Assembly (NCBI GenBank): GCA_038065095.1
Contig: JBBTRR010000001.1
Coordinates: 29,652-93,651 of the forward strand
DNA length: 64,000 bases
Source of the DNA: Patescibacteria group bacterium
GTDB lineage: Bacteria > Patescibacteriota > Minisyncoccia > JACQLN01
Direction of reading: 5' to 3'
The translations under genes and the position numbers were made by a program. Below the pieces are notes generated by a model that was not told the origin of the DNA, made no database searches, and saw only the letters and a program-made list of their open reading frames with translations. The first letter of the stretch is position 1. Every line of letters starts with the position of its first letter. Below are positions 26,308 to 64,000 of this stretch, piece by piece.

Positions 26308-26765
26308 AAATAAAAAAACCTTAAAGTTCCTAAAATCCATTTGATAGCTCTTTTTAAGATATTTACATCCTCATCCATCATACCAATACTAGAATTACAT
26401 TGTCGGCAAATCCAGCCACGTATTTCCCCGTTTAGATGGTAGTGGTCTAAGACAACATCATTTTTAAACTGTCTGATTATTGTTCTATCACAGACAGGAC
26501 AGTGGAAAGATTCTCCGAGAGGTGGCATGGGATGGGTTTTTCCATACGCAATTCTCATCTTTATAGGAATTGGTTTTTTCCACTTGCGACAATTCCGACA
26601 TTCACCTCTCCTAGATATTTTTCCCGCAATACTTTTTTGGTTTTTTTCAAACTCAAAAATACTTTTTCTTTGCTGACATCGACGACAAATCTTGGTTTCA
26701 TTAAAACACAAATTACAGAACTCTTTGTGGGAGGCTTTATTACGATTACATTCAGTACAAATCAT
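26304..26765 (-). CDS. Endonuclease VII-family (HNH-like) nuclease with N-terminal Cys-rich Zn-finger repeats
   Basis: CPVCDRTIIRQFKNDVVLDHYHLNGEIRGWICRQCNSSIGMMDED matches the T4 EndoVII/Endonuclease_7 core. ATGA start/stop overlap with the upstream LexA-MTase gene. Confidence 0.6.
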   Translation of the reverse strand: MICTECNRNKASHKEFCNLCFNETKICRRCQQRKSIFEFEKNQKSIAGKISRRGECRNCRKWKKPIPIKMRIAYGKTHPMPPLGESFHCPVCDRTIIRQFKNDVVLDHYHLNGEIRGWICRQCNSSIGMMDEDVNILKRAIKWILGTLRFFYF

Positions 26766-28279: not shown

Positions 28280-28390
28280 TACTTAATTATACCGAAAATT
28301 AACCGAAAGTTATCCACAGATAAATCACAGCTCATTATAAAGTTTTTATTGCAGTAACATTGGCGAATTGATAGTATCATTATAAATATT

Positions 28391-51581: not shown

Positions 51582-51611
51582 ACAAAATTATAAAAATAAT
51601 TTAAAAATTTT

Positions 51612-51815
51612 ATGACAAATTCAAACTTAGGTAAATTAGATAGGATATTGCGATTTGCTTTAGCTTTCTGGTGGCTTGGGCCGTTGGCGCCACATTTTGA
51701 CGCAAATTGGGCAAATATAATTATTACTTCTATTGGATGGATTGCTCTTATTGAAAGTTTCTTAGGCTGGTGTTGGCTTCATACTGCTTTCGGCATTAAT
51801 AACAAGGACAAATAG
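51612..51815 (+). CDS. DUF2892 (YgaP-like) small membrane protein
   Basis: RFALAFWWLGPLAPH...WIALIESFLGWCWLHTAFGI. Confidence 0.5.
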   Translation: MTNSNLGKLDRILRFALAFWWLGPLAPHFDANWANIIITSIGWIALIESFLGWCWLHTAFGINNKDK

Positions 51816-51828
51816 CAGTATCATTAAA

Positions 51829-52248
51829 TTGACTAAAATAGTTATGATTATACGAAGTATAAAATCGCTAATAGGAGTTTTTGTTTTACTTGCTTACATA
51901 AGTATTGGCGTTTTTGGTTTATTTGAATTTAATCACACGCCCGAAACACCAATGGTAAATTGCCCGTACGCAGAAAATAGTTTTTCTGTATGCGCCAACA
52001 ACCTTGGCCATTTAAATAATTGGCGTCAGTTTTCAAATATAACCTTACCGTTACTGTTTGTTTTTTCTATTCTGATTTTGGGGATGGTTTTGTATTTTCT
52101 TGGCAAACAAAAATTTTTAAATCAAAAACAGTATTTTTATAAATGGAAATTCTATCTAGACAATAGAAAACGATACACCTATCCCGATAGAATTATTAAA
52201 TGGCTTTCACTTTTTGAAAATAGCCCGTCTTTTTCATATAAGATATAG
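51829..52248 (+). CDS. hypothetical membrane protein
   Basis: 139-aa ORF with two TM segments. Confidence 0.3.
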   Translation: MTKIVMIIRSIKSLIGVFVLLAYISIGVFGLFEFNHTPETPMVNCPYAENSFSVCANNLGHLNNWRQFSNITLPLLFVFSILILGMVLYFLGKQKFLNQKQYFYKWKFYLDNRKRYTYPDRIIKWLSLFENSPSFSYKI

Positions 52249-52360
52249 CTTTAATTTGTCGTAAAATTTTTAGCTATGTCTTTTTTAAATCCCTATTACG
52301 GGATTTTTTAATTCACATAAAACTCCACAGCTTCTACGGAGAGAAACTTTAGAAAAAAAT

Positions 52361-52879
52361 ATGAAAAACAAAATTATTGTGTATATTATTGCTATTGTAA
52401 TTCTTTTTATCGGAATATTCTTGTATGCAAAACCTAATGAAAGCAAAAAAGTAGATGATGGAAAAATAACAAACTCACATCCAGCTAAAACAGAGGGCAC
52501 TTTAGTGGCCAAAGAAATATTTTATGACTTCGGAACAATTTCTATGAAAAACGGCAAAGTGAGTAAATTGTTCAAAATTAACAATTCTACAAGTGAAGAT
52601 ATAAAATTGCCGAGCTTAACTACTTCTTGTATGTGCACAGCGGCATATTTTATAGATTCAGATAGAAACAAAAAAGGACCTTTTGGTATGCCTGGTATGG
52701 GGTTTGTTCCCAAATTAAACGCAATTATAAAAGCTGGAACATCGGGTGAGATTGAAGCTGTATACGATCCAAATGCTCATGGTCCAGCTGGGGTTGGTAT
52801 GATTGATCGATTTATTTATCTTGAAGATGCAAATAACAATAAATTGCAATTTGAGATAAAAGCAAACGTAACACCTTAA
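52361..52879 (+). CDS. DUF1573-like beta-sandwich protein
   Basis: FYDFGTISMKNGKVSKLFKINNSTSEDIKLPSLTTSCMCTAA pattern. Confidence 0.45.
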   Translation: MKNKIIVYIIAIVILFIGIFLYAKPNESKKVDDGKITNSHPAKTEGTLVAKEIFYDFGTISMKNGKVSKLFKINNSTSEDIKLPSLTTSCMCTAAYFIDSDRNKKGPFGMPGMGFVPKLNAIIKAGTSGEIEAVYDPNAHGPAGVGMIDRFIYLEDANNNKLQFEIKANVTP

Positions 52880-52884
52880 ACTGT

Positions 52885-53664
52885 ATGAAAAAAATTATTA
52901 TTGCAACTAGTATCGTGCTGACCGCTATTATTGGATTGATTATTATCAAAAATAGTTCGGTAACCTCGTCTGTTATTTGGAATTTGAGCAATCAAGGCGT
53001 ATGGCTTTTGCCGCTTGTGCTTATTGCCGCAGTTTTAGACAGTGTACACCCGTGTTCGTTCTCAATTCTTCTTATTACGATTGCTTTTCTGTTTGGCATA
53101 CAAATGGGCCGTAAGAAAATTCTGGCGCTTGGCGGAACATATATTGCCGGTATATTTACCGCGTATTTCTTGATTGGAGTTGGGATATTGAAGGTTTTGC
53201 ATATCTTCAATACTCCGCACTTTATGGGAAAATTAGGGGCAACACTCCTTATTACGTTTGGCGTGCTCAATCTTTTGAATCGCTTCCTTCCATCATTTCC
53301 CATCAAGCTTCGCCTGCCAGCTGTGGCTCACGGCACGATGAGCAAATTAATGGATAAAGCTTCGTTTTCTGCGGTGTTTGTGCTTGGCCTTTTGGTTGGC
53401 ATTTGCCAGTTTCCTTGTATGGGCGGGCCGTACCTTATGGTTATCGGACTTCTGAAAGATCAAGTTACCTATATGAAAGGATTTGGTTATTTAATGCTTT
53501 ATAATTTTATTCTTATCATTCCACTTGTTGTTGTACTCTTTATTTCTGCAAACAAAGTGTTAGTTGAAAAAATGGAAGTATGGAAACGCGATAATATGAA
53601 TGATTTAAAACTCTGGGCAGGTATTGCTATGATTATTATTGGTGTTTTAATATTCTTTATCTAA
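52885..53664 (+). CDS. CcdA/DsbD-like thiol-disulfide transporter
   Basis: HPCSFSIL and FPCMGGP Cys-in-TM motifs. 6-7 TM segments. Confidence 0.45.
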   Translation: MKKIIIATSIVLTAIIGLIIIKNSSVTSSVIWNLSNQGVWLLPLVLIAAVLDSVHPCSFSILLITIAFLFGIQMGRKKILALGGTYIAGIFTAYFLIGVGILKVLHIFNTPHFMGKLGATLLITFGVLNLLNRFLPSFPIKLRLPAVAHGTMSKLMDKASFSAVFVLGLLVGICQFPCMGGPYLMVIGLLKDQVTYMKGFGYLMLYNFILIIPLVVVLFISANKVLVEKMEVWKRDNMNDLKLWAGIAMIIIGVLIFFI

Positions 53665-53671
53665 AACTAAT

Positions 53672-54127
53672 ATGATTATTACAATAATATCAATTTTACT
53701 TATCACGCCTGTAATTTGGTTGGTAAGTAAAAAATTAAAGTTTAAAATTTGCCCAATTTGTGCTGGAGTTTCTTTGACATGGTTTTGGTTGTTGGTTGGA
53801 ATAAAATTAAATTTACTAAGTTCTGCCGACTATCAGTTACCTACGGCTATTTTAATGGGTGGAACTGTTGTTGGTTTAATGTTTAAATTGGAACAATTTA
53901 TCAAAATAAAATTTGTTTTGATTTGGAAAACACTATTTGTTGCATTAGGTTTTATGGTGGTGCACAGCTTGATGTTTGCTAACTGGATGATTTTTCTAGT
54001 CAGCGCTATTTTAGTTGTTTTGCTTACTTTTATTTTAAAGGTAAGTAAAACAACTTTAGAAAACCAGAAATTGCACGAGGTTTCTTCGTCAAAGGAACTT
54101 GAAGAAAAAATGAAAAATTGTTGTTAA
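53672..54127 (+). CDS. hypothetical membrane protein with CPICAG motif
   Basis: 151-aa ORF with 4 TM segments. Confidence 0.3.
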   Translation: MIITIISILLITPVIWLVSKKLKFKICPICAGVSLTWFWLLVGIKLNLLSSADYQLPTAILMGGTVVGLMFKLEQFIKIKFVLIWKTLFVALGFMVVHSLMFANWMIFLVSAILVVLLTFILKVSKTTLENQKLHEVSSSKELEEKMKNCC

Positions 54128-54155
54128 GAAAAATTATAATAATTAAAATAAAAAT

Positions 54156-55106
54156 ATGGAAGACGAAATACCAAAAAAAAATAACTCATATGCTTTGCCA
54201 ATAACCATTATTATCGCGGGAGCTATGATTGCGGTGGCTTTGGTCTATGGTCCTAGAAACTGGGCGACGTCAACACAAAACATTGCTGGGCAAGTCTCGG
54301 TGGTTGAAGAAGCTGTCTTGCCTTCAAAAGGCGTTGTGCTTCCAGTTACTTGGAGTGATCTCGGATTAAAGCTTGTTAGTGTAGGAGCTATTGATGCTGA
54401 AAAATTTAAAGCTGTCTATGATCAAAAAAGGGTTTTTACCGATGAATATAAAAACCTTCTTCTTGGTAAGAGCGATGGCAAACTCAAAATAACAAATGAA
54501 AATTCCGGTTATTTGCTTAATCTGTTTTGGGCGCTTGGTCTAGCCAGCAAAAATCCAATATTGGAATCAGGCGAGATGACAAATCCGGCCTATGGGGGCG
54601 CGGGAAATTTTGCTTCAACAGGCGGTTGGACAATTGCGCAAGGCAACGCTATGGATCATTACAGTCGCCATAAATTTTTTGATTTAACTTCCGAACAGCA
54701 AGCTCTTGTAGATAAAATATCAAAAGGCATATACAGACCGTGTTGTGGCAATTCCACGCATTTTCCGGACTGTAATCATGGAATGGCTATGCTCGGTCTT
54801 CTTGAGCTTATGGCTTCGCAGGGTACAAGTGAACAGGATATGTGGCGAGCAGCTTTAGCTGTTAATTCCTATTGGTTTCCAGACACATATATAACAATTG
54901 CGGCCTATATGAAAGGCAAAGGCGTTGAATGGAAAGATGTAAATCCGCAAGAAATACTGGGCGCTAACTATTCAAGCGCGCAGGGATATGCAGAGATTGC
55001 CGCTCAAGTTTCTCAACCTCATCAGCAAGGAGGTGGAAGTGGTTGCGGAGTTGGCGCTGGAGAACCAGCTGCACCACAACGTCAGCAGGGCGGATGTGGA
55101 ATATAA
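54156..55106 (+). CDS. hypothetical secreted/anchored Cys-rich protein
   Basis: N-terminal TM, CCGNSTHFPDCNHG motif, Gly/Gln-rich C-terminal tail ending CG. Confidence 0.3.
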   Translation: MEDEIPKKNNSYALPITIIIAGAMIAVALVYGPRNWATSTQNIAGQVSVVEEAVLPSKGVVLPVTWSDLGLKLVSVGAIDAEKFKAVYDQKRVFTDEYKNLLLGKSDGKLKITNENSGYLLNLFWALGLASKNPILESGEMTNPAYGGAGNFASTGGWTIAQGNAMDHYSRHKFFDLTSEQQALVDKISKGIYRPCCGNSTHFPDCNHGMAMLGLLELMASQGTSEQDMWRAALAVNSYWFPDTYITIAAYMKGKGVEWKDVNPQEILGANYSSAQGYAEIAAQVSQPHQQGGGSGCGVGAGEPAAPQRQQGGCGI

Positions 55107-55184
55107 ATTAAGCAATATAATTATTTTTTGGAGATAATTCACTAATTTGTAAATAGTGGCTTTTTGTGATAAATTACGTGTTCA

Positions 55185-56207
55185 ATGTCAAAAAAATACA
55201 CATTTCATGTAAAAGGAATGCATTGTAAAGCTTGCGTGGTTCTTGTTGAATCCGAGCTTAAAGAATTGCCAGAGGTATCTTCTGCGGAGGCTTCGCTTAA
55301 AGATTTAAGCGTAGAAGTTTCTGGAAATTTTGGTGATAAAACTGCGGAGCATATTGCTAAAGATTTAAGTGAAACAATAAAAAAACACGGCTATGAACTT
55401 TTACTAGAAAAAGAAAAACATTCTGTTAAATGGAATGATTTTTTAATTGCCGGCCCGATAGCTTTGGGTTTTATTTTACTTTTTATCTTTTTACAAAAGA
55501 TAGGTTTAGTAAATTTAGTTAATAGTTCTAAAGTTGGTTTTGGCACAGCTTTTGTTATCGGTCTCATTGCTTCAGTTTCTACTTGTATGGCGGTGGTGGG
55601 TGGTTTGGTGTTGTCTATGTCGGCAAATTTTGCCAAAGAAGGCGATAAGATAAAACCTCAATCCTTGTTTCATGTTGGGCGTTTAATTTCTTTCTTTTTG
55701 TTGGGTGGTATTATCGGGGCGGTAGGCTCTTCTTTTCAGTTGGGTGGAACCGGAGTGTTTATATTAAGTTTTTTGGTGGCAATTATTCTTTTAGTTTTAG
55801 GCATAAACTTAATAGATGTTTTTCCTTGGGCTAAAAAATTTCAACCCACCTTACCTGCTTTTTTAGGTAAGCGTGTACATAGTTTAAAAAATATTAATCA
55901 TACATTAACTCCATTCTTAATTGGTGTAGCTACGTTTTTTTTACCATGTGGTTTTACTCAATCAATGCAGATTTATACACTAACTACTGGAAGTTTTTTA
56001 ACGGGCGCTTTAACAATGTTTTTCTTTGCGTTAGGCACGTTACCAGTGCTTTCGCTTTTAAGTTTCAGTTCGCTGGGGATTCACAAAAAAGCACAGTCAG
56101 GAATATTTTTTAAGACGGCTGGTTTGGTGGTAATATTTTTTGGAATTTTTAATTTAATTAATAGTTTGGTCGCGATAGGTTTGATACAACCATTGTTTAA
56201 TTTTTAG
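55185..56207 (+). CDS. HMA-domain (GMHCKAC) fused to CcdA/TauE-like membrane permease
   Basis: N-terminal MSKKYTFHVKGMHCKACV heavy-metal-associated domain. TCMAVVGG and LPCGFT Cys-in-TM motifs. Confidence 0.5.
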   Translation: MSKKYTFHVKGMHCKACVVLVESELKELPEVSSAEASLKDLSVEVSGNFGDKTAEHIAKDLSETIKKHGYELLLEKEKHSVKWNDFLIAGPIALGFILLFIFLQKIGLVNLVNSSKVGFGTAFVIGLIASVSTCMAVVGGLVLSMSANFAKEGDKIKPQSLFHVGRLISFFLLGGIIGAVGSSFQLGGTGVFILSFLVAIILLVLGINLIDVFPWAKKFQPTLPAFLGKRVHSLKNINHTLTPFLIGVATFFLPCGFTQSMQIYTLTTGSFLTGALTMFFFALGTLPVLSLLSFSSLGIHKKAQSGIFFKTAGLVVIFFGIFNLINSLVAIGLIQPLFNF

Positions 56208-56212
56208 AAAAA

Positions 56213-56608
56213 ATGAAACTAACAATTATTTCTATAATAATTTCGGCTGGCGTTGTTTTTGCTGCTATATTTTTTGCTAATAACAGAAATTCTTTGGGTT
56301 TGCCCGATAGCGAACCTGTGGCGGTTTCGCAAGTTGTAGATGGTAAACAAGTTATAGAAATTAAAGCTAAGGGCGGCTATACGCCTCGCGAAATTTTAGC
56401 TAAAGCCGATATGCCCACGGTTATTAAAGTAAAAACACAAGGCACATTTGATTGTTCTTCGGCTTTGGTTATTCCAAGTTTAAATTACAGATCTAATTTA
56501 TCGCCATCGGGTGTTACCGAAATTGAAGTGCCTCCGCAAAAAATAGGTGCCGTTATAAACGGCACCTGCGCTATGGGTATGTATGGGTTTTCTATAAAGT
56601 TTAATTAG
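56213..56608 (+). CDS. cupredoxin-like domain protein
   Basis: N-terminal TM, C-terminal GTCAMGMYGF Cys/Met cluster typical of cupredoxin_1-like proteins. Confidence 0.4.
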   Translation: MKLTIISIIISAGVVFAAIFFANNRNSLGLPDSEPVAVSQVVDGKQVIEIKAKGGYTPREILAKADMPTVIKVKTQGTFDCSSALVIPSLNYRSNLSPSGVTEIEVPPQKIGAVINGTCAMGMYGFSIKFN

Positions 56609-56743
56609 GTGTTTTATTTAAACAAAAAAAAGGGAGAATTACTCATTCTTCCTATTTTCATATTGGGGATAACTATTGTTTGTATACCTTCTATTTATTT
56701 TCTATAATTATATTATAGTCTCTACAAAAATATCGTCAATACT

Positions 56744-58606
56744 ATGATTACTAAAAATCAAAAAGAGGTGTTGAATTTTGTTAAAAGTTATCAAACCAAA
56801 CATGATTTCGCTCCTTCTCTGGAGGAGATTAAGAAAAAATTTAAACTTGCTTCTGTTTCTACCTCTCATTACTACATTAGAAAGCTTCAAGAGGCGGGGC
56901 AACTCCAAAAAGAATTTAATCAACCGCGCGCTGTTTCAACTACTAATAAAAAACAAACAATAGAAATACCAATCGTTGGCGCAATTGCCGCTGGGCAACC
57001 CATTAGGGCAATTGAAGTACAGAATGAAACAATTACTATCACTAAAGACGAAATAAGCAAACAAGGTAAACATTATGCCTTACGTGTTCAGGGTAATAGT
57101 ATGATAGAAGAAGGAATTTTTGACGGTGACATTGTGGTTATCCGTAAACAAGAAGTTGCCGAGAACGGGCAAACAGTGGTTGCAATTATTGATGAGGACG
57201 AAGCAACTCTAAAAAAGTTTTATCGTGAAAATAATAGGATTCGGCTTCAGCCAGCTAATCCAAGATTATTTCCAATTTATCGCGATGAGGTAGAAATTCG
57301 GGGCGTTGTTGTAAAAATTATTCGCAACCTTGAATTGCAGTTAGACAAAGAAAAATCAAAAGATAAATATGTGCGCCGAATAGATTCTTCTTGGGATTAT
57401 CGCGGAGAAAATACTAAAACCTATACACATGGTATTCACATCTATCCCGCAATGTTTATTCCGCAAGTGGCGCGAAGATTATTGGAGACATACAGTCAAG
57501 AGTACGATACAATTTGCGATATTTTTTGCGGTTCTGGCACAGCTTTGGTTGAAAGTAAATTGTTAAATAGGAGTGCCTATGGTATTGATCTAAACCCCTT
57601 GGCCATTTTCCTTGCCAAGGCGAAAACTACACCCATCAATCCTCAAAAATTAACAAGAACATATCTTTCTTTATTTGATAGAATTGGAAAAGTTACAGAT
57701 AGTGAGATTAAAAAACTCGATTTCAAAAATATTGGTTTTTGGTTTAAAGAAAAAGTTATTACTAAACTTTCAAAACTTAAAAAAGCTATCCAAGAAATTA
57801 AGGACGAAATAATTCGCGATTTTTTTATGGTCGCTTTTAGTGAAACAGTGCGCTATGCCTCAAACACAAAGACAGGCGAGTTTAAATTGGTAAGAATTAA
57901 GAGTGAAAAATTAGATAAACATGATCCCGATGTATTTGGAATTTTTCGAAAAAGGGCCGAGTCAAATATTGCAAAAATGGGTGAATTTTATAAAGATGCA
58001 AAAAAAGATGCTTGGACAAAAATAATTTACGGTGACTCGTCTAAAGATAATGGTATAAAACTAGCCTCTGTAGATTGCATAATTACCTCTCCGCCTTATG
58101 GAGATAGTCGAACAACGGTAGCTTACGGCCAGTTTTCGCGTCTTTCAGCCCAATGGGCCGATATTTTTGACAATCCGAATGATGCTTCTAGCATAGATAA
58201 CGAACTACTGGGCGGTAGAGCCTCAAAAACACTATCACATTCTTTGTCTTCGGATTATCTTAACGATTCATTAGACAATATTGCTAAAAAAGACGAAACG
58301 CGTGCCAAAGATGTTTTAAGTTTTTTTATTGGATTGAATGAGTGTTTAAAGCAAGCTCATAAAATATTAAAACCAAAAAAATATTTCTGTATTGTTATTG
58401 GTAATAGGTTAGTTAAACAAGTTCGTATCCCAACCGATTTTATAATCGCTGAGCTAGGAGAAAAAATCGGTTTTACTTGTGAGGATATTTTTGTTCGTAA
58501 TATTCCAGGCAAAAGAATGCCCATCAAAAACTCGCCTACAAACATTGTTGGAATACTTGAAGAAACGATGAACAAAGAAAGTATTGTTGTTTTAAGAAAA
58601 AACTAA
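56744..58606 (+). CDS. LexA (wHTH + S24 peptidase) fused to alpha-class DNA methyltransferase (FxGxG ... SPPY; N4C/N6A type)
   Basis: QKEVLNFV, DFAPSLEEIKKKF, cleavage site IAAGQP, RVQGNSM, ATLKKF, RLQPAN. Then DIFCGSGTALVE (motif I) and IITSPPYGDSRT (motif IV). Confidence 0.8.
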   Translation: MITKNQKEVLNFVKSYQTKHDFAPSLEEIKKKFKLASVSTSHYYIRKLQEAGQLQKEFNQPRAVSTTNKKQTIEIPIVGAIAAGQPIRAIEVQNETITITKDEISKQGKHYALRVQGNSMIEEGIFDGDIVVIRKQEVAENGQTVVAIIDEDEATLKKFYRENNRIRLQPANPRLFPIYRDEVEIRGVVVKIIRNLELQLDKEKSKDKYVRRIDSSWDYRGENTKTYTHGIHIYPAMFIPQVARRLLETYSQEYDTICDIFCGSGTALVESKLLNRSAYGIDLNPLAIFLAKAKTTPINPQKLTRTYLSLFDRIGKVTDSEIKKLDFKNIGFWFKEKVITKLSKLKKAIQEIKDEIIRDFFMVAFSETVRYASNTKTGEFKLVRIKSEKLDKHDPDVFGIFRKRAESNIAKMGEFYKDAKKDAWTKIIYGDSSKDNGIKLASVDCIITSPPYGDSRTTVAYGQFSRLSAQWADIFDNPNDASSIDNELLGGRASKTLSHSLSSDYLNDSLDNIAKKDETRAKDVLSFFIGLNECLKQAHKILKPKKYFCIVIGNRLVKQVRIPTDFIIAELGEKIGFTCEDIFVRNIPGKRMPIKNSPTNIVGILEETMNKESIVVLRKN

Positions 58607-59304
58607 AGGATTTTCTTATGAATCTTAAACAAAAGCGGTAAAAATTTTTCAGTCAGACGAAACGCAGAACCATGGTCGTGTGGTTGTCCTGCTTTTATTC
58701 CACTATGATAGACACCAAGACGAATATCGTATTTTGAATGGGCAAGAAATTTAGTCGGATCAATTTCTTTAAGGATATATGCGTCTTTGTAGTGAAAATA
58801 CTCGTGTCCGCTTTTATTTTTTGTTTCGGCTCGAACTAATATCAAGCCATTTCCTATTTTTTCTATCGCTTTCTGTTTCAAAAATGCCAGACTGTAATAT
58901 CCTAGAAGTTTTCCTTTTTTAAGAATAAGTAATTTTCCTTGCCCCTCATCAATAGTAGCTTGAAAACCCATACCATTTATTTTACCATCACTAATTGTTT
59001 GATGAAGAATTTTAATTTTAGGAAATTCTGAATCGGGATAACCAAAACGCTTTCTAATTTCAGAATTTGTGATACCTTCGGGGCTTTTAGTGAATAATGT
59101 CATCATGGAAATAGTATTGATTCTTTGAGACTTTAACTCCATTACACCGAAATCAGGTAGTGCAATATTATTTTCTGTAATTCCGAGATAATCCTCAAGA
59201 GTTTTTCCGATTCCAGTATTATGTTTTCGGTTTGATTTAATCCACCCCTTTTCTGAGAGTTCTTTTAAACCTTTCTTGATTTGAGTAAGTGTTCGTTTTT
59301 GCAT
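58603..59304 (-). CDS. putative Type II restriction endonuclease (MvaI/BcnI-like family, tentative)
   Basis: NTGIGKTLEDYLGI..N....PDFGVMELKS N-terminal pattern. 234 aa. Convergent 4-nt overlap with the MTase gene. The ORF-track N-terminal extension (to 59424) translates the tRNA and is rejected. Confidence 0.5.
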   Translation of the reverse strand: MQKRTLTQIKKGLKELSEKGWIKSNRKHNTGIGKTLEDYLGITENNIALPDFGVMELKSQRINTISMMTLFTKSPEGITNSEIRKRFGYPDSEFPKIKILHQTISDGKINGMGFQATIDEGQGKLLILKKGKLLGYYSLAFLKQKAIEKIGNGLILVRAETKNKSGHEYFHYKDAYILKEIDPTKFLAHSKYDIRLGVYHSGIKAGQPHDHGSAFRLTEKFLPLLFKIHKKIL

Positions 59305-59309
59305 CTTAT

Positions 59310-59394
59310 TGGTGGGCGAGGAGGGACTTGAACCCTCAAGCCTTTCGGCACACGATTTTGAGTCGTGCATGTTTGCCAATTTCATCACTCGCCC
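59310..59394 (-). tRNA. tRNA-Leu (anticodon CAA), long variable arm, encoded CCA
   Basis: Reverse complement reads GGGCGAGTGATGAAATTGGCAAACATGCACGACTCAAAATCGTGTGCCGAAAGGCTTGAGGGTTCAAGTCCCTCCTCGCCCACCA, with acceptor GGGCGAG/CTCGCCC and T-arm GAGGG-TTCAAGT-CCCTC. Confidence 0.75.
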
Positions 59395-59489
59395 AATATT
59401 TAGGTATTTTCTAGTAAAAAGCATTCATTGTCAATGCGGATTCCTTAAGGTAAAATGAATAGTATCTAATTAAGTAACTAAGTAATTTT

Positions 59490-60452
59490 GTGTCTAGAAC
59501 AATTTCTTTCGTTAACCAAAAAGGTGGTGTAGGAAAATCAACCAGCGTTATAAACGTTGGTGCGTTTTTAGCAGTACACGGTAAATCGGTTTTAGTGGTG
59601 GATCTTGACCCGCAAGCTAATACAACTTCGGGTATGGGTGTAGATCCATATCAAATAGAATGGAATTTGTATCATGTTTTAACAAATGGTTTGTTGCCCG
59701 AAGAGGCTATAAGAAAAACCGGTGTAGCTGGTTTGGATTTATTACCTTCTAGTACAAATTTGGCGGGTGCGGGGATAGAATTAGTAACTCAACCTAACAG
59801 AGAATTTCGTTTGCGCGAAGCCTTAAGCCGAGTTTCTACAAACTACGATTATGTTTTAATTGATTCACCTCCTTCGCTCGGTTTACTAACTATAAATGGT
59901 TTAGTTGCTTCCGATTATGTTGTTATTCCTGTACAATGCGAATATTACGCTTTGGAAGGTATTGGTCATCTTTTAAAAACTATAGAATTGATTCGCGATA
60001 ATCTTGGTCACAATGTTAGTGTGTTAGGCGCAGTCTTAACTATGTACGATAAGCGCAATCGCCTTAATCGTGATGTGGTAAAAGAAATGAGTAGAAATTT
60101 TCCAGGGCGTGTTTTTAATTCTATTATTCCTCGTTGTGTTTCTTTGGCCGAAGCGCCCTCGTTTGGTAAAACTATTTTGCAATATGATCTTTATTCCAAA
60201 GGTGGAAAAGCTTATAGACAGTTAGCCGAAGAAATACTAGGCTTAGAAAATGTTGGTGCGGTAGAAACTCCTGTTGTTAGCGAGGTTGCCGTTCAAGAAG
60301 AAAGTCAGGAAGAAAATATAAATAATGAGAATATAGATAATTTAGAACCAGAAAACGAAGTTGTAGTAACCGAGGCCAGTAATGATTTTGTTCAAACAGA
60401 AATTGTTACCACTTTGGTAGCGGAAGATAGTAATTCTCAATTATCAATTTAA
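59490..60452 (+). CDS. parA: ParA/Soj chromosome partitioning ATPase with acidic C-terminal tail
   Basis: ISFVNQKGGVGKST deviant Walker A, VDLDPQANTTSG. Confidence 0.85.
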   Translation: MSRTISFVNQKGGVGKSTSVINVGAFLAVHGKSVLVVDLDPQANTTSGMGVDPYQIEWNLYHVLTNGLLPEEAIRKTGVAGLDLLPSSTNLAGAGIELVTQPNREFRLREALSRVSTNYDYVLIDSPPSLGLLTINGLVASDYVVIPVQCEYYALEGIGHLLKTIELIRDNLGHNVSVLGAVLTMYDKRNRLNRDVVKEMSRNFPGRVFNSIIPRCVSLAEAPSFGKTILQYDLYSKGGKAYRQLAEEILGLENVGAVETPVVSEVAVQEESQEENINNENIDNLEPENEVVVTEASNDFVQTEIVTTLVAEDSNSQLSI

Positions 60453-60536
60453 CAATTTCCAATATATTTTCAATGATATAATTTTCAAACATTTAGTTTT
60501 GTAAATTGTAAATTGAAAATTGTAAATTAGACACAT

Positions 60537-61451
60537 ATGGCTTTAGGCAGAGGTTTGGAATCATTGATTCCACAAAAAAGGAACGAAGAAGTTTCTTCTC
60601 CAAAAGAACAAACTAGCTTTTCTGTTCCAGCAAAGAATGTTGCCACAACCGCAAGGCAAGAGAGTGTTTTTTATATTGAAATAGAAAAAATAAAACCAAA
60701 CCCTTATCAGCCTAGAAAAGAGTTTAACGAAGCCGAGCTTAATAGTTTGGCCGATTCCATGAAGCAGTACGGCATGCTTCAACCTCTTTTGGCTTCTAAG
60801 ATTGAGTTTGCTGTTTCCAGTGGAACCAAAGTTGAATACCAGTTAATAGCTGGTGAACGCCGTTTAAAAGCCGCGGGTATTGCGGGGCTTCGCCAAGTTC
60901 CGGTAATAATAAAAAATCCAGACAATGCTACAAAATTGGAAATAGCTTTAATAGAAAACGTCCAGCGCCAAAATCTAAATGCCATAGAAGAAGCTTTGGC
61001 TTATGAACGTTTAATGACTGAATTTAAATTAACCCAAATGGAGGTGGCTCAAAAAGTTGGCAAGAGCCGCGAGGTAGTTGCCAACAGGGTTCGTCTTTTA
61101 GATTTACCATACGAAGTTCAACGAAGTATTTCCGACGGAAAAATAAGCGAAGGTCATGCGAAGGTTTTGTTGGCTATTAAAAATTCCGAACGCCAAATAT
61201 TTTTAACTGACGAAATAATTAAAAAAACTTTATCGGTCCGCGAACTAGAAGATATTGTTCGTACCGACGAATCTTACAGGGCAAAAACAACAAAGGTAAG
61301 TGATCCGGAACTAGAAAACTATAAAAAAACAATTCAAGATACTTTGGGTACACCTGTTTCTTTTTCGGGTAACCGCGAAAAAGGTAAACTGGCTATCAGT
61401 TTTTATTCTCAAGAGGATTTAGATAGAGTAATTAAGCGTTTGACAATGTAG
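60537..61451 (+). CDS. parB: ParB/Spo0J partitioning protein
   Basis: LGRGLESLI, GERRLKAAGIAGL, HTH region. Confidence 0.85.
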   Translation: MALGRGLESLIPQKRNEEVSSPKEQTSFSVPAKNVATTARQESVFYIEIEKIKPNPYQPRKEFNEAELNSLADSMKQYGMLQPLLASKIEFAVSSGTKVEYQLIAGERRLKAAGIAGLRQVPVIIKNPDNATKLEIALIENVQRQNLNAIEEALAYERLMTEFKLTQMEVAQKVGKSREVVANRVRLLDLPYEVQRSISDGKISEGHAKVLLAIKNSERQIFLTDEIIKKTLSVRELEDIVRTDESYRAKTTKVSDPELENYKKTIQDTLGTPVSFSGNREKGKLAISFYSQEDLDRVIKRLTM

Positions 61452-61532
61452 GTATATTCTGATACAATATATCTAAGCTCAAATAGAGCCTAAATAGTAC
61501 CTCAAAAACCTTAATCGCAGGAGAAACTGGCT

Positions 61533-62366
61533 ATGGCTAAAAGCCCGGTCGGTAGTATGTCGGACTGGTCCGGCGTGCTCAAAGATTTTTTCCGTCAGGT
61601 TGACGATGGCAGTATCACGCTGGAGATGGTGAAGGCCTTCGTCGAACATCGGGTTGTGTCTGCTCTCGAAACTCTGCTGGAGACCACAAAAAAGAAACTC
61701 CAGAAGTTTTTCCGTGTAGACCTTGAACCCATGCCTGCTGAATTCACCGAAGAGAACTTGGCCAAGTGGGCCGAGTTCAACTTGAAGCCTGTCTATCTGC
61801 CGATGGAAGAAATCGGTGAAGACCGCAAACTGAAAAATTGGACCAAGCCCGAAAAATGGTTTTATCAGAAAATCGGAGAAGGCAAAGTTAACGCGGACAG
61901 TGCCAAGCTTCACCAAGGCTGGTATCTGGCCGATTTCACAGTCGGCACAGATTACACCGACGGCACGCAGGTGTTTCCGAACGACCCTCTCAATCCAATC
62001 ATCAAAAGATTGCGCGAAGAAGGGAAAATCGGAAAGTACGATAATACTCCGCTCGGTTCTCGCTTTGCCATTACCCACGACGAATGGCAGACAGTAGTTT
62101 GTCCTGCTGTGGCCGAATCACTTGGTTTCAAACCTACACAGGTTCGCTTGGAGCGATCCATTGAATTTAACGCGATCGGGAATATCTACGATCCCAATCG
62201 TGGCAGGTTCAATATGTGGGAGTGGTTCAGTGATAAATTTGAGGACTCCTACCAGCTTTGCAGTGGTCGCCGCGGGAGCGGTGGTCTGGCCCACGTCTTC
62301 TACAGTTGGTCTAGTCATCGCCTCGTCGACATAGCTGGTCGTCCTCTGGTGAGTTTCGTGAGTTAG
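61533..62366 (+). CDS. DGR target (variable) protein, C-terminal VR
   Basis: GC-rich ORF with GCAGGAGAAACTGGCT-ATG RBS. Its C-terminal ~40 codons align to the downstream TR, with differences concentrated at TR adenines. Confidence 0.65.
   Translation: MAKSPVGSMSDWSGVLKDFFRQVDDGSITLEMVKAFVEHRVVSALETLLETTKKKLQKFFRVDLEPMPAEFTEENLAKWAEFNLKPVYLPMEEIGEDRKLKNWTKPEKWFYQKIGEGKVNADSAKLHQGWYLADFTVGTDYTDGTQVFPNDPLNPIIKRLREEGKIGKYDNTPLGSRFAITHDEWQTVVCPAVAESLGFKPTQVRLERSIEFNAIGNIYDPNRGRFNMWEWFSDKFEDSYQLCSGRRGSGGLAHVFYSWSSHRLVDIAGRPLVSFVS
62235..62352 (+). other. DGR variable region (VR)
   Basis: Aligns to TR 62661-62778 with a constant offset of 426 nt. The 3' homology block CGTCCTCTGGT(G)AGTTTC is identical (IMH-like). 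Confidence 0.6.
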
Positions 62367-62384
62367 GTTCTTTTCCCCTTGGGC

Positions 62385-62412
62385 TTTGGCTCTTGGGATT
62401 TTCCCCCAACGC
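62385..62412 (+). other. GC-rich hairpin downstream of VR
   Basis: TTCCCCCAAC-GCAA-GTTGGGGGAT (8-bp GC stem, 4-nt loop) ~35 nt past the VR end, followed by a T-run. Confidence 0.6.
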
Positions 62413-62660
62413 AAGTTGGGGGATTTTTTTATTTTCACAAACTTGATAGAATTTTTCTTGAGTAAGCTAATGAAGAATAGATCAAGGTTTATTCTCGCAT
62501 TTACTCTCCTGTTTAAAACAGGAAATAACGAAACTCCTTGCTTTGGGCTAGATCGGGTGTCCTAAATTTGTGGGATTGCCGAGTAAAAAACTATCCGTGG
62601 GATGCGGATTTCAGAAAATATAGATTTATATTTTCGGTGATTATAGACGGCTTAAAGCAA

Positions 62661-62778
62661 AAATTCGAGGATTCCAACCAGCTTTACGGCGGTAACCGCG
62701 ATAACGATGGCTTGGCCAACGTCAACTACAACTGGTCTAGCAATCGCAACGACAATATAGCTGGCCGTCCTCTGGTAG
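62661..62778 (+). repeat. DGR template repeat (TR)
   Basis: Adenine-rich (many AAC codons in the VR frame). Homologous to the VR. Intergenic. Followed by hairpin AAGAGCACCT-TATTTTTT-AGGTGCTCTT at 62790-62818. Confidence 0.6.
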
Positions 62779-62825
62779 TTTCCAAACAAAAGAGCACCTT
62801 ATTTTTTAGGTGCTCTTTGTAAAAT

Positions 62826-63143
62826 TTAGTTTGATCTTATCCAGCCACCTAACATTCTGCCTATTTCCAAAACTTTTTCTTCAGCTATTAAATATTTTTT
62901 TATATTGATTGATTTGGTATCGTGAGCAAGGCGGACAAGATATTTTAACAAGTCAGTTTTATCGCTAGCCTTTCTTAAAGTTTCATCTTTTTGATGTTTG
63001 GGTTGGTAACTTGCTGAAAGTATTAATTCTAAAACCTCTAAAATAGTATTTTCAATTTTATTTCCCAGAGTAAAACGTTCCAGCTTTGGAAATGTTTTTA
63101 AACACTCGTGAAATAATTTATATAACTCACAAATCTTATGCAC
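62826..63143 (-). CDS. avd: Avd-like four-helix-bundle accessory protein (GTG start)
   Basis: FPKLERFTLGNKIENTILEVLELILSAS ... LKYLVRLAHD ... EIGRMLGGWI matches the four-helix-bundle/Avd family. Divergent from the RT. Confidence 0.65.
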   Translation of the reverse strand: MHKICELYKLFHECLKTFPKLERFTLGNKIENTILEVLELILSASYQPKHQKDETLRKASDKTDLLKYLVRLAHDTKSINIKKYLIAEEKVLEIGRMLGGWIRSN

Positions 63144-63162
63144 AATTGGTATTTCAACTCCG

Positions 63163-64000
63163 TTGGGGGGGGGCTTTAATGGTAAAGTTTTCCATAATAT
63201 TTTTGAAAAGATTATTGGCTTAGAAAACTTATTTTTAGCTTGGCGCGAATTTAAGCGTGGTAAGAAAAAGCGTTTAGATGTTCAAGAATTTGAGTTTAAC
63301 CTAGAAGATAATTTGTTTCAATTGCGTAACGAACTAAAGAATAAAATCTACCAACACAATAAATACATTCCTTTTTATGTAACCGACCCAAAGTTAAGAC
63401 ATATACATAAGGCTACAGTTCGGGATAGAGTTTTACATCAAGCCGTGTTTAGAGTTCTTTACCCAATCTTTGATAAAAATTTTATATTTGATTCTTATTC
63501 TTGCCGAATAAACAAAGGCACGCATAGAGCAATTACCAGATTAGAAAGTTTTTGCCATAAATTAAGCCAAAACAACAGTAAAACTATTTTCGCCTTAAAG
63601 TGTGATATTAAAAAGTTCTTTGATTCTATAGATCAAAATATTCTAGCTAGTTTGATACAAGCAAAAGTTAAAGACGATAATGCTACGTGGCTTGTAGACG
63701 TGATTATCAAAAGCTTCCCCAAAGGTTTACCCTTGGGCAATGTAACCAGTCAATTGTTTGCCAATATTTATCTTAACGAACTAGACCAATTTATTAAACA
63801 TAAATTAAAAGAAAAGTACTACATTCGTTATTGTGATGATTTTATTATTTTGGGTGAGAACCTGAACGTCTTGCAGAGATTATCAAAAAAGATAGATGAG
63901 TTTTTGGGAAAGAGTTTAAAGCTATCCTTGCATCCCAATAAAATTATCATGCGTAAATATATACAGGGCATAGATTTTCTGGGTTATGTGATTTTGCCGA
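63163..64000 (+). CDS. DGR-type reverse transcriptase, 3'-truncated by window edge (start codon uncertain)
   Basis: LPLGNVTSQLFANIYLNELD (DGR hallmark IGxxxSQ in place of the group II QGxxSP). YIRYCDDFIILG (YxDD). RT motifs 1-5 in order. Confidence 0.8.
   Translation, partial: MGGGFNGKVFHNIFEKIIGLENLFLAWREFKRGKKKRLDVQEFEFNLEDNLFQLRNELKNKIYQHNKYIPFYVTDPKLRHIHKATVRDRVLHQAVFRVLYPIFDKNFIFDSYSCRINKGTHRAITRLESFCHKLSQNNSKTIFALKCDIKKFFDSIDQNILASLIQAKVKDDNATWLVDVIIKSFPKGLPLGNVTSQLFANIYLNELDQFIKHKLKEKYYIRYCDDFIILGENLNVLQRLSKKIDEFLGKSLKLSLHPNKIIMRKYIQGIDFLGYVILP
63165..63173 (+). repeat. G9 homopolymeric tract at the RT 5' end
   Basis: CCGTTGGGGGGGGGCTTT. Separates an out-of-frame ATG (63138) from the RT reading frame. 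Confidence 0.8.

Follow-up and report, generated by a model that had tools for sequence, protein, structure and literature searches.

A complete LexA repressor at the N-terminus of the methylase of a compact, mobile restriction-modification cassette in Patescibacteria

In an ultra-small groundwater member of the Patescibacteria, a 2.6-kb restriction-modification (RM) gene pair, at about 56664-59304 of the 64-kb window (the whole stretch of DNA that was analysed), encodes a methylase that carries a complete LexA repressor at its N-terminus, and by its sequence this repressor is the sole dedicated regulator of the cassette. The cassette is self-contained and consists of two genes, the LexA-methylase on the plus strand and an MvaI-type endonuclease on the minus strand, which are convergent and overlap by 4 nt. 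We consider it fairly probable that it is a compact, horizontally mobile Type IIP RM system in which the LexA-methylase provides damage feedback and whose predicted target is CCWGG. The LexA-methylase design appears to be undescribed; the study of the Patescibacteria SOS network by Sánchez-Osuna et al. (2017) may already cover the operator or the fusions. Every sequence feature named in the original prediction for this region was found in its place. Of its interpretation, the fusion, the order of the methylase motifs, the MvaI/BcnI-type partner, the homology of two LexA modules in the window and the modularity stood, while the idea of a tRNA-associated island did not. The genes flanking the cassette are cupredoxin-like, DsbD-like and parAB, the last pair lying after the tRNA-Leu gene, as had been proposed.

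56744-58606, plus strand: LexA-methyltransferase fusion gene (ORF of 620 aa; domain and motif searches)
58603-59304, minus strand: MvaI-type endonuclease gene (233 aa, 234 codons with the stop; PF15515)
59310-59394, minus strand: tRNA-Leu(CAA) gene with an encoded CCA end (ARAGORN; Rfam RF00005, 57.4 bits)
59490-60452: ParA gene, beyond tRNA-Leu (Pfam)
60537-61451: ParB gene, beyond ParA (Pfam)
26762-28279, minus strand: second LexA-methylase fusion (Pfam), with a LexA module 44% identical to the first

The first of these interpretations, that a full LexA module is fused to a methyltransferase in one 620-aa protein, is borne out jointly by Pfam, by the NCBIfam lexA equivalog TIGR00498, which the fusion passes (175.5 bits; the cut-off is 110.95), and by the motifs IAAG/QP, VQGNSM, ATLKKF and RLQPAN, all four of which it contains. 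The winged-HTH domain LexA_DNA_bind (PF01726) matches residues 2-63 (E=3.5e-9), Peptidase_S24 (PF00717) matches residues 76-190 (E=2.8e-30), and the LexA structure 3k2z in the PDB matches residues 2-196 (E=9.3e-32). The parts of the module are the following.

56744-56953, plus strand: DNA-binding domain, aa 1-70 (domain assignment)
Within that domain, about aa 37-48, plus strand: recognition helix (domain assignment)
56990-56995, plus strand: cleavage site Ala83-Gly84 (motif IAAG/QP)
56969-57313, plus strand: S24 domain, aa 76-190 (Pfam)
57098-57100, plus strand: catalytic Ser119 (VQGNSM)
57212-57214, plus strand: catalytic Lys157 of the S24 autoprotease

The counterparts in E. coli LexA are Ala84-Gly85, Ser119 and Lys156. 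Among 120 proteins of the family, A83-G84 and K157 are conserved in all 120 and S119 in 119, and none of 42 fusions, which cover all methylase types and are otherwise about 40-65% identical, departs from the same Ala-Gly, Ser and Lys. Mean identity within the family is 85% for the S24 domain and 81% for the methylase, so that the former is equally conserved. Because the cleavage and catalytic residues are kept and the S24 domain is as conserved as the methylase, sequence comparison indicates purifying selection on the LexA machinery. The residues required for self-cleavage stimulated by RecA-ssDNA are present, and this activity is predicted here. Structure prediction of the fusion reached a pLDDT of 39.5 and yielded no usable domain arrangement.

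Upstream of the fusion gene, the sequence contains a promoter, a direct repeat that overlaps it, and two further elements.

56664-56672, plus strand: DnaA-box-like element TGGGGATAA (consensus TGTGGATAA, the reverse complement of TTATCCACA)
56680-56685 and 56703-56708, plus strand: methylase promoter, -35 TTGTAT and -10 TATAAT with a 17-nt spacer (read from the sequence)
56688-56705, plus strand: putative operator of the LexA module, CTTCTAT-N4-TTTCTAT (direct repeat with an 11-bp period, overlapping the -10)
56712-56739, minus strand: reverse-facing promoter-like site TTGACG-16-TATAAT (11 of 12 consensus positions)

No other site in the cassette matches the direct repeat with two or fewer mismatches, and in five relatives the single site of each cassette occupies the same position. 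In the 47 LexA-type genes where a repeat could be detected, its core co-varies with residues 41-44 of the recognition helix: a TTCGG core goes with the helix [IV]H[EQ]H in 26 of 27 cases, and a TTCTA or TTCGA core with AH[YHF][YH] in 18 of 20. Because of this co-variation, the repeat is very probably the operator of the LexA module. In stand-alone lexA genes of the phylum, the repeat has the TTCGG core and lies between the -35 and the -10, and direct repeats with a period of 11 are a known kind of LexA motif, described in Alphaproteobacteria (GTTC-N7-GTTC; PMC8565304).

The methylase promoter is conserved in five relatives (L001, L009, L020, L089 and L090). Most relatives have their ATG 6 nt past the -10, so the mRNA would be leaderless; the window and L089 have a 29-nt insertion at this point and thus a short leader. 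The same insertion creates the reverse-facing promoter-like site, also found in L089, which would give transcription back across the operator; this AT-rich region shows no enrichment of promoter-like sites (13 found against 11.3 expected). When cassettes from six contexts were aligned, conservation was seen to start exactly at the DnaA-box-like element, which marks the left edge of the sequence shared by cassettes of different genomes. The exact 9-mer occurs upstream of 23 of 78 lexA-type genes and in 1 of 1452 control windows, and its sole exact copy in the window, at 28310-28318, lies upstream of the second LexA-methylase fusion.

Methylases with a regulatory domain of their own are known: in M.SsoII, M.Ecl18kI, M.EcoRII and M.ScrFIA (ScrFI), an N-terminal HTH binds the methylase promoter and represses the synthesis of the enzyme (PMC3874152). 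The fusion resembles them in having the DNA-binding domain at the methylase N-terminus and a site in the methylase promoter, where autorepression is predicted; since the regulator is fused to the methylase in both cases, it moves along with the cassette and registers the concentration of methylase directly. It differs from them in that the short HTH is replaced by an entire LexA, with its winged HTH, its cleavable linker and the S24 domain for autoproteolysis and dimerisation, in that the putative operator is built as a direct and not an inverted repeat, and in that an input from DNA damage is implied. In addition, since the genes are convergent here, there is no divergent endonuclease promoter that the fusion could activate in the manner of M.SsoII. 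These autoregulating methylases also lend some weight to a simpler reading, according to which the LexA module only binds DNA and dimerises for plain autorepression and the protease site is inherited and has no signalling role; the S24 domain is also the dimerisation domain of LexA and could be retained for that purpose alone. However, dimerisation needs neither the cleavage site nor the catalytic dyad, and these are precisely the residues found invariant both in the family, with the single exception at Ser, and in the distant fusions, so that we regard this reading as unlikely.

The LexA-methylase architecture is not a chance pattern, because the 620/621-aa form recurs in independent assemblies, where it makes up more than 120 protein clusters. 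The cassette was found across many Patescibacteria lineages in unrelated contexts, with protein identities of 79-91%, and by this comparison the mobile unit is the two-gene cassette only. The two LexA modules in the window are homologous, and their 44% identity is accompanied by the same cleavage and catalytic residues. The suggestion of a modular, selected arrangement also gained support from the invariant residues, the co-variation of operator and helix, and the range of partners: the methylases joined to LexA come from at least five Pfam families, namely N6_N4 (in both motif orders), Eco57I, D12, N6_Mtase and C5, and the Pfam partners of LexA in these fusions are methylase families only. 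The downstream ORF is convergent in 32 of 35 fusion loci, and in 30 of those it is at most 11 nt away or overlapping; the recognisable convergent partners belong to the endonuclease families Bsp6I, NgoFVII, EcoRII-C, PDDEXK and HNH. These sequence surveys indicate that the LexA-methylase fusion is general and widespread in Patescibacteria.

With LexA, the SOS repressor, and with the S24 repressors of phages and integrative elements, the fusion shares the three-part architecture, the cleavage site and the catalytic dyad, and with LexA also a putative autoregulatory operator that overlaps its own promoter and whose direct repeat has the 11-bp period of the alphaproteobacterial motif. The fusion might be the housekeeping SOS repressor of the cell, or one of several, with a secondary link to RM. 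The lexA equivalog model accepts both fusions of the window, and LexA is also their name at NCBI; neither a stand-alone lexA nor recA was found in the 64-kb window; and the box of the second fusion, TTTCGGT-N4-TTTCGGT, equals that of the stand-alone lexA genes of the phylum, so that such fusions could cross-talk with SOS boxes. In contrast, the helix SHYY and the operator TTCTAT of the cassette fusion have diverged from the stand-alone type, and the protein has 620 aa and is joined to a 425-aa methylase on a mobile RM cassette, unlike a stand-alone LexA of about 200 aa. The gene also moves between genomes together with its endonuclease, as a core regulator would not, and no regulon is seen beyond its own promoter within the window, where the only other site with at most one mismatch is intragenic (691-708, 1 mismatch). 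We therefore hold a housekeeping role to be improbable.

In the methylase part of the fusion, Pfam N6_N4_Mtase (PF01555) is matched with E=8.6e-19. The best stretch aligns residues 193-286 with the C-terminal part of the profile (118-214), and the motif order is thus permuted relative to this profile, which has the beta order.

57329-58603, plus strand: methylase domain, about aa 196-620 (Pfam N6_N4_Mtase)
57524-57541, plus strand: motif I, FCGSGT, residue 261 (motif search)
58085-58105, plus strand: motif IV, TSPPYGD, residue 448 (motif search)
59131-59154, minus strand: endonuclease catalytic residues D51, E56 and K58 (LPDFGVMELK)

The order is I-TRD-IV with 187 aa between motifs I and IV, in line with the earlier assignment to the alpha class from a motif I placed about 190 aa before an SPPY motif IV, and SPPYGD is kept in all 120 family proteins. 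The methylase is too distant from every solved structure for a structure-based assignment. The source names of its homologues include "PspGI methylase" and "cytosine-N4-specific", and it is plausibly predicted to make N4-methylcytosine at CCWGG.

The convergent ORF overlapping the fusion by 4 nt had been taken for an MvaI/BcnI-type endonuclease, and the searches support this assignment. Pfam MvaI_BcnI (PF15515) is matched by residues 13-226 over positions 4-227 of its 227 (E=8.8e-45), and the solved structures of R.MvaI (2oa9, E=1.9e-29) and R.BcnI (2odh, E=9.7e-17) are both matched, MvaI being the nearer. The PD-(D/E)XK site is intact, with P50-D51...E56-L-K58 aligned to the PD...ExK of both enzymes, and a C-terminal segment, YHSG...HDHG.AFR, is kept between the endonuclease and R.MvaI. 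The cassette thus resembles the MvaI system in its endonuclease, which aligns end to end with R.MvaI, in its SPPY methylase and in the depletion of CCWGG in the host: no 5-mer of the window is more strongly depleted than CCWGG, with 24 occurrences observed and 59 expected (obs/exp 0.40), and specificity of the cassette for this site is plausible. To our knowledge, M.MvaI, M.BcnIB and M.PspGI have no LexA module. R.MvaI cuts CC/WGG and Cm4CWGG protects from it (PMC3001055); MvaI and BcnI are monomers that make two sequential nicks (PMC3001055, PMC3089477), and the cassette endonuclease is likewise predicted to be monomeric.

The likely function of the cassette is that of an autorepressed methylase that would be derepressed by RecA-triggered self-cleavage. 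The fusion would dimerise via its S24 domain, bind the repeat and repress its own promoter, so that a burst of methylase would be made upon entry into a naive cell and the level then kept low. As long as the methylase promoter is unrepressed, antisense transcription into the overlapping endonuclease gene would delay or dampen the endonuclease; a sequence scan of the methylase/endonuclease junction found no terminator-like site. Upon damage to the chromosome, of which the most relevant would be the cuts made by the endonuclease itself when methylation lags, RecA-ssDNA filaments would trigger self-cleavage at Ala83-Gly84. This would free the DNA-binding domain and derepress the promoter, giving more methylase and more antisense pressure on the endonuclease gene. 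The outcome would be a damage-feedback loop, in effect the Type II counterpart of restriction alleviation. This loop presupposes methylase activity of the intact or the cleaved protein besides the predicted DNA binding, dimerisation, RecA-dependent cleavage and transcriptional interference. During phage-induced damage, more methylase could hurt defence.

Cleavage might also act in the opposite direction: if it destabilised or inactivated the methylase, the endonuclease would kill the damaged or infected cell, and the module would be a suicide or abortive-infection switch set off by damage. Protease degrons become exposed on LexA fragments, and the cleaved N-terminal fragment would end in ...GAIAA, resembling the end of cleaved E. 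coli LexA that ClpX recognises, as was reportedly found by Neher et al. in 2003. RM cassettes do kill their hosts once the methylase drops (PMC3874152). However, cleavage removes the repressor too, and the fusion protein would thus be resynthesised at a high rate, and the S24-methylase product retains all methylase motifs; a suicide switch appears to us quite doubtful.

No operator repeat was found at the endonuclease gene in the scan of the cassette, and any control of this gene is therefore indirect. The tRNA-Leu gene lies upstream of it on the same strand, and the whole gap between the tRNA and the endonuclease ATG is ATAAG, in agreement with the roughly 5 nt noted before. This abutment replaces the endonuclease promoter region of about 75 nt that relatives carry (conserved in L089 and L090), so that the gene must rely on read-through from the tRNA-Leu promoter, for which there is one candidate.

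59406-59434, minus strand: promoter-like site TTGACA-17-GAAAAT upstream of tRNA-Leu (sequence scan)

This is the sole candidate promoter for tRNA-Leu and, via read-through, for the endonuclease gene, and between it and the endonuclease ATG the scan found no terminator-like and no other minus-strand promoter-like site. The original prediction saw in this junction a small genomic island integrated at the tRNA-Leu 3' end, a reading that is favoured by the 5-nt distance, by the tRNAs located before the endonuclease gene in two relatives (tRNA-Gln 33 nt off in L018; in L012 a tRNA-Ala about 225 nt ahead of the endonuclease start) and by the clear mobility of the cassette, but that is very improbable, since no repeat of 12 nt or more of 59296-59400, which includes the tRNA-Leu 3' end, occurs in att orientation anywhere in the window, no integrase or recombinase was found in the flanks, GC shows no compositional shift (0.345-0.349 for the cassette, 0.355-0.365 for its flanks), most relatives do not adjoin a tRNA, and the closest ones (91%, 87% and 80% identity) lie in unrelated, non-tRNA contexts. 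No empty site was recovered, the sole metagenome match being the same strain.

Nine relatives of the cassette have a 73-78-aa HTH_3 gene preceding the endonuclease gene. In another lineage (L001-L008), a large serine recombinase is found beside the cassette. A tblastn search of window positions 50001-64000 with the L001 controller found no C-type controller gene of the kind present in the nine related loci. As in the C-protein RM systems (PvuII, BamHI, Esp1396I), a dedicated transcription factor is predicted to delay restriction behind modification in a new host; in contrast to them, the cassette of the window has no C gene, its position being taken by the tRNA gene, and control would be exerted by the fused LexA on the methylase promoter and not on the endonuclease promoter.

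In Type I restriction alleviation, ClpXP degrades HsdR after DNA damage. The logic proposed for the damage-feedback loop would be the same, with damage tipping the balance to protection and sparing the repaired DNA of the cell, although the mechanism, there the proteolysis of the restriction subunit, is wholly different. We know of no Type II equivalent. The design would let an RM system boost self-protection while its own DNA is being cut. More tentatively, the fusions may form a Patescibacteria-wide class of damage-sensing RM systems whose methylase measures both its own concentration, by autorepression, and the damage from its partner nuclease, by self-cleavage that RecA triggers, and that include links to SOS and replication. 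If so, Type II systems would gain a built-in restriction alleviation, and the DnaA-box-like element common to these promoters would add an input from replication status. Variants that retain the host-type TTCGGT operator, such as the second fusion, would join the host SOS regulon or even replace its repressor, and a selfish cassette would have turned into a part of the core stress circuitry of its host.

The cassette encodes a restriction-modification system whose control module is new to us and is proposed to sense DNA damage: LexA and a DNA methylase form a single polypeptide, and the gene of an MvaI-type endonuclease converges on the fusion gene. The sequence features that the original prediction had described for the locus (fusion, endonuclease, overlap, tRNA, and parAB) were confirmed in every particular. 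They are arranged as follows, with parA and parB coming after the tRNA.

Upstream of 56744: methylase promoter, -35 TTGTAT, 17 nt, -10 TATAAT
56688-56705: putative operator CTTCTAT-N4-TTTCTAT, a direct repeat of 11-bp period covering the spacer and the -10
56744-58606, plus strand: LexA-methylase fusion ORF, 620 aa
58603-59304, minus strand: MvaI-type endonuclease ORF, 233 aa, convergent with the methylase gene and overlapping it by 4 nt
59310-59394, minus strand: tRNA-Leu(CAA) with an encoded CCA end; ATAAG alone separates it from the endonuclease ATG
59434-59406, minus strand: promoter-like site TTGACA-17-GAAAAT upstream of the tRNA-Leu

The Pfam domains in the 620-aa protein are LexA_DNA_bind (residues 2-63), Peptidase_S24 (76-190), and N6_N4_Mtase, and solved LexA structures align to residues 2-196 (3k2z, E=9.3e-32). 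The cleavage site is Ala83-Gly84 (IAAGQP), and the autoprotease residues are the nucleophile Ser119 (GNSM) and the general base Lys157 (TLKK), whose counterparts in E. coli LexA are Ala84-Gly85, Ser119, and Lys156. The methylase half has motif I (FCGSGT, residue 261) ahead of motif IV (TSPPYGD, residue 448), and the Pfam beta-order methylase profile matches in a permuted fashion, which bears out the predicted order of motif I, TRD, and motif IV. More than 120 clusters of 620/621-aa proteins, 79-100% identical to the fusion, came up in a protein search; the recurrence of the same frame in independent assemblies rules out an assembly or frameshift artefact. Among 120 close relatives, the Ala-Gly and the Lys are constant and the Ser varies in one protein, and the S24 domain (mean identity 85%) is as conserved as the methylase (81%). 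The AlphaFold2 model of the fusion, based on an alignment of 43 sequences of 79-91% identity, was unusable (mean pLDDT 39.5, pTM 0.33). In the databases, the relatives go by "transcriptional repressor LexA" or by "PspGI methylase" / "cytosine-N4-specific", names that each conceal the other half of the protein.

In the window cassette and five related ones, the repeat over the -10 is the sole site with at most two mismatches, and its position is constant; near the endonuclease genes of these cassettes, no second operator was found at that threshold. The sequence TTTTCTA at 59406-59412, in the tRNA promoter, was not counted as an operator because it is only a half-site. What speaks most strongly for the repeat as operator of the fused LexA domain is its co-variation with the recognition helix across fusions to different methylase families. 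Among 47 LexA-type genes with a detectable repeat, 26 of the 27 with a TTCGG core have [IV]H[EQ]H at helix residues 41-44, and 18 of the 20 with a TTCTA or TTCGA core have AH[YHF][YH] there; the two helix classes do not overlap, and the helix of system 2, the cassette studied here, is SHYY. The TTCGGT version is found between the -35 and the -10 of the stand-alone lexA genes of the phylum and of many fusions. Direct repeats of period 11 are an accepted type of LexA motif, as in the GTTC-N7-GTTC of Alphaproteobacteria (PMC8565304). We regard autorepression at the repeat, taken alone, as likely, and the same logic is known for M.SsoII and M.EcoRII (PMC3874152). The other LexA-methylase fusion of the window, system 1, has the following features.

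26304-28318, minus strand: system 1 fusion region, 505 aa, beta-order N6_N4
28291-28308: system 1 operator TTTCGGT-N4-TTTCGGT, perfect and host-type
26304-26765: Endonuclease VII-like ORF, 153 aa, co-directional with the system 1 fusion and overlapping it by 4 nt

Since their helix-operator pairs differ, systems 1 and 2 should not cross-regulate.

In most members of the system 2 family, the ATG lies 6 nt past the -10, giving a leaderless mRNA; in the window and in L089, a relative, a 29-nt insertion adds a leader and a reverse-facing TTGACG-16-TATAAT. This promoter-like site (56712-56739, minus strand) lies in the methylase leader and faces the operator. About 150 nt further, there is a minus-strand terminator-like hairpin (56545-56567) inside the 3' end of a cupredoxin-like gene and outside the conserved cassette, and a short antisense RNA is conceivable.

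A DnaA-box-like 9-mer, TGTGGATAA/TTATCCACA, often present as TTATCCACAgTTGAC, was observed just upstream of the -35 in Patescibacteria lexA-type promoters. Besides the upstream regions of the comparison loci L009-L088, its copies are:

56664-56672, plus strand: DnaA-box-like 9-mer, system 2
28310-28318, minus strand: DnaA-box-like 9-mer, system 1

The exact 9-mer is present in 23 of the 78 upstream regions (9/33 stand-alone genes and 14/45 fusions) versus 1 of 1452 control windows, and the element also marks the left boundary of the conserved cassette. It might bring DnaA into the control of lexA promoters, belong to the operator, or serve as an end for recombination. A role as a general promoter element was rejected, given that matches with at most one mismatch number 20 in the window versus 17.7 expected and the sole exact copy is at the system 1 promoter.

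The assignment of the 58603-59304 ORF to the MvaI/BcnI-type endonucleases also held: it matches the MvaI_BcnI family profile over its whole length (E=8.8e-45), is closer to the R.MvaI structure (E=1.9e-29) than to that of R.BcnI (E=9.7e-17), and keeps PD51...E56-x-K58. R.MvaI cuts CC/WGG and is blocked by the Cm4CWGG that M.MvaI produces (PMC3001055), and M.PspGI is thought to N4-methylate CCWGG (PMC2532716). For system 2, N4 chemistry and a CCWGG target are predicted. Relative to a maximal-order Markov model of the 64-kb sample, CCAGG/CCTGG is the most depleted of the 512 strand-collapsed 5-mers (24 observed, 59 expected, ratio 0.40), which fits a long exposure to a CCWGG system as far as 64 kb can represent the genome. 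The next most depleted 5-mers in the window are CTCAG (0.48), GCAGC (0.53), and CCSGG (0.57), a hint of further restriction systems, present or past, acting on the genome.

Between the promoter-like site of the tRNA-Leu and the endonuclease gene, we found no other promoter-like site and no terminator-like site, so the endonuclease must be transcribed by read-through from the former. In the relatives L089 and L090, about 75 nt of conserved sequence, including a hairpin and a promoter-like stretch, precede the endonuclease gene; in the window the tRNA takes their place. No Shine-Dalgarno sequence was recognisable at any inspected start (56744, 59304, 59490, 56213, and 54156); its absence before the endonuclease gene, 5 nt past the tRNA, is thus not peculiar.

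We propose that the fusion dimerises via S24 and, bound to the repeat, acts as the repressor of its own promoter. On entry into a naive cell, this promoter would be free and the methylase made first, with its transcription running antisense across the endonuclease gene; with rising levels of the fusion, the promoter would shut and the endonuclease would become expressible. Should methylation lag and the endonuclease cut the chromosome, or should other damage occur, RecA filaments would provoke cleavage at Ala83-Gly84, with loss of the DNA-binding domain, derepression of the promoter, and restored protection. The released DNA-binding domain would have a new ...GAIAA end, similar to the one that ClpX recognises on cleaved E. 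coli LexA. Sequence comparison establishes the architecture, the conservation of the cleavage machinery, the presence of one operator over the -10, the terminator-less convergent overlap, and the mobility of the cassette. We hold the model as a whole, an autorepressed methylase derepressed by RecA-triggered self-cleavage, with moderate confidence, which is higher for autorepression at the repeat alone and lower for the RecA-coupled step.

An unlikely alternative is that the LexA module is a plain autorepressor without signalling; against it stand the Ala-Gly, Ser, and Lys that are constant in 42 of 42 fusions. A damage-triggered suicide switch, also unlikely, would make use of the same cleavage machinery, and the operator that it would release is the one over the promoter of the protective methylase. 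Equally unlikely is that the fusion is the housekeeping SOS repressor, a reading in line with its score with the NCBIfam lexA equivalog model (175.5 bits, cut-off 110.95); to be set against this are the attached methylase and the mobile cassette. Neither a stand-alone lexA nor recA is present within the 64-kb window.

The relatives of the fusion come from many candidate phyla, including Sungbacteria, Liptonbacteria, Kerfeldbacteria, Vogelbacteria, and Yonathbacteria, and the closest ones keep the pair convergent and overlapping by 4 nt, yet among unrelated flanking genes: a 91% relative is flanked by ABC-transporter and LTD-domain genes, an 87% relative lies between pilus/hibernation-factor and ornithine-decarboxylase genes, and an 80% relative adjoins an AAA ATPase and a large serine recombinase. 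In the alignment of upstream regions, similarity starts exactly at TGGGGATAAC (56664 in the window), and on the right it stops at the endonuclease ATG. The proposal of a tRNA-targeted island, which the adjoining tRNA-Leu had suggested, is rejected: repeats of the tRNA-Leu 3' end were chance 11-12-mers only (k = 11-16, both strands, whole window, with a general repeat search of 52000-62000), and the cassette shows no integrase and no GC shift, so that the "island" is just the 2.6-kb cassette. A metagenome scan with the 40-nt 3' half of the tRNA recovered the same strain with the same arrangement and no empty site, and a scan of viral contigs with the fusion found no relatives, so phage carriage is not supported. 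The closest protein matches place the window, AT-rich with a GC of about 0.35, in a groundwater genome of the Patescibacteria (Parcubacteria-type). The left flank (49020-56608) is a metal-handling cluster of ordinary chromosomal genes without mobility functions, and a probable diversity-generating retroelement, in a region with GC up to 0.43, occupies 61533-63143.

49020-51581: HMA-domain P-type ATPase, left flank
55185-56207: HMA-DsbD_2 membrane protein, left flank
56213-56608: cupredoxin-like protein, left flank
61533-62366: retroelement target ORF, 277 aa, variable region about 62235-62357
About 62660-62782: retroelement template repeat, an Asn-rich, adenine-rich copy of the C-terminal part of the ORF, about 430 nt downstream
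62826-63143, minus strand: bAvd-like ORF (Pfam E=1.2e-21)

Mismatches between template and ORF are mostly A in the repeat copy against C/G/T in the ORF (27 cases), and the reverse transcriptase would lie at or past the window end.

When the LexA module alone was searched against 1.8 billion proteins in 50%-identity clusters, the nearest representatives were mostly long proteins, at least 42 of them of 390 aa or more. All 51 long representatives scanned carry LexA_DNA_bind and Peptidase_S24, and the catalytic partner families listed for them are all DNA methylases (N6_N4_Mtase 31, Eco57I 7, D12 5, N6_Mtase 5, and C5 3, counts in which some hits may fall in the same protein); C5, D12, beta-order N6_N4, and permuted N6_N4 partners were confirmed at locus level. 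In a rough neighbour-joining tree, the fusion modules group together, apart from most stand-alone LexAs, which argues that the LexA module, together with promoter and operator, has moved from methylase to methylase and was not repeatedly acquired from the host. Of 35 fusion loci, 32 have a convergent ORF next, in 30 of these overlapping or at most 11 nt away, and 25 such neighbours outside the system 2 family include Bsp6I (6), NgoFVII (2), EcoRII-C, PDDEXK_5, HNH, and Endonuclease VII nucleases by Pfam. In the D12 fusions, a second D12 methylase comes next. Loci with nuclease or second-methylase neighbours are restriction-modification systems. At one locus, L032, the LexA-like and methylase genes are adjacent and unfused, an arrangement that may have preceded the fusions or have arisen by fission of one:

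1432-3522 of L032: 199-aa LexA-like gene with a TTTCGGT repeat operator, 37 nt, 484-aa methylase gene, and co-directional 341-aa ORF

Across the system 2 family, the endonucleases split into two types about 36% identical, both nearest MvaI, although the methylase is about 80% identical. The window, L089, L090, L091, L011, and L015 have the window's type and no controller gene; among the loci compared with this group (L001-L008, L009, L013, L014, L016, and L021-L023), nine have the other type, always accompanied by a small (73-78-aa) HTH_3 controller-like gene. Two endonuclease types within one methylase family point to an exchange of the endonuclease half of the cassette. Next to the L001-L008 cassettes are a large serine recombinase and an AAA_15/AAA_21 ATPase.

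LexA, alpha-type N4/N6 methylases, MvaI-type nucleases, and the idea of autoregulating methylases are all known; their combination is new to us. Our full-text literature searches returned no description of a LexA-methylase fusion, though an earlier mention may exist, and none appears in the standard review on how restriction-modification systems are regulated. The proteins themselves are already public in databases under partial names, by which reconstructions of SOS regulons in Patescibacteria would be misled. The fusions also provide LexA-operator pairs that are orthogonal by nature (cores TTCGG, TTCGA, and TTCTA, each with its matching helix), useful for studying the evolution of repressor specificity and for synthetic biology, and a handful of recombinant proteins and reporters would suffice for a direct test of the damage-sensing idea.

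Type II systems behave like toxin-antitoxin pairs, and it is understood only in part how the host escapes killing after DNA damage, after repair, or while a system settles in a new cell; controller proteins, autoregulating methylases, and antisense RNAs are solutions already known. Patescibacteria have very few regulators and largely lack CRISPR. The system 2 locus is one ordinary member of a large, previously unremarked class, and an architecture found on at least five methylase families and in dozens of 50%-identity clusters is a dominant strategy and not a curiosity. If the mechanism holds, it adds a new solution: with the methylase fused to the canonical damage sensor, the signal of damage would act directly on protection.
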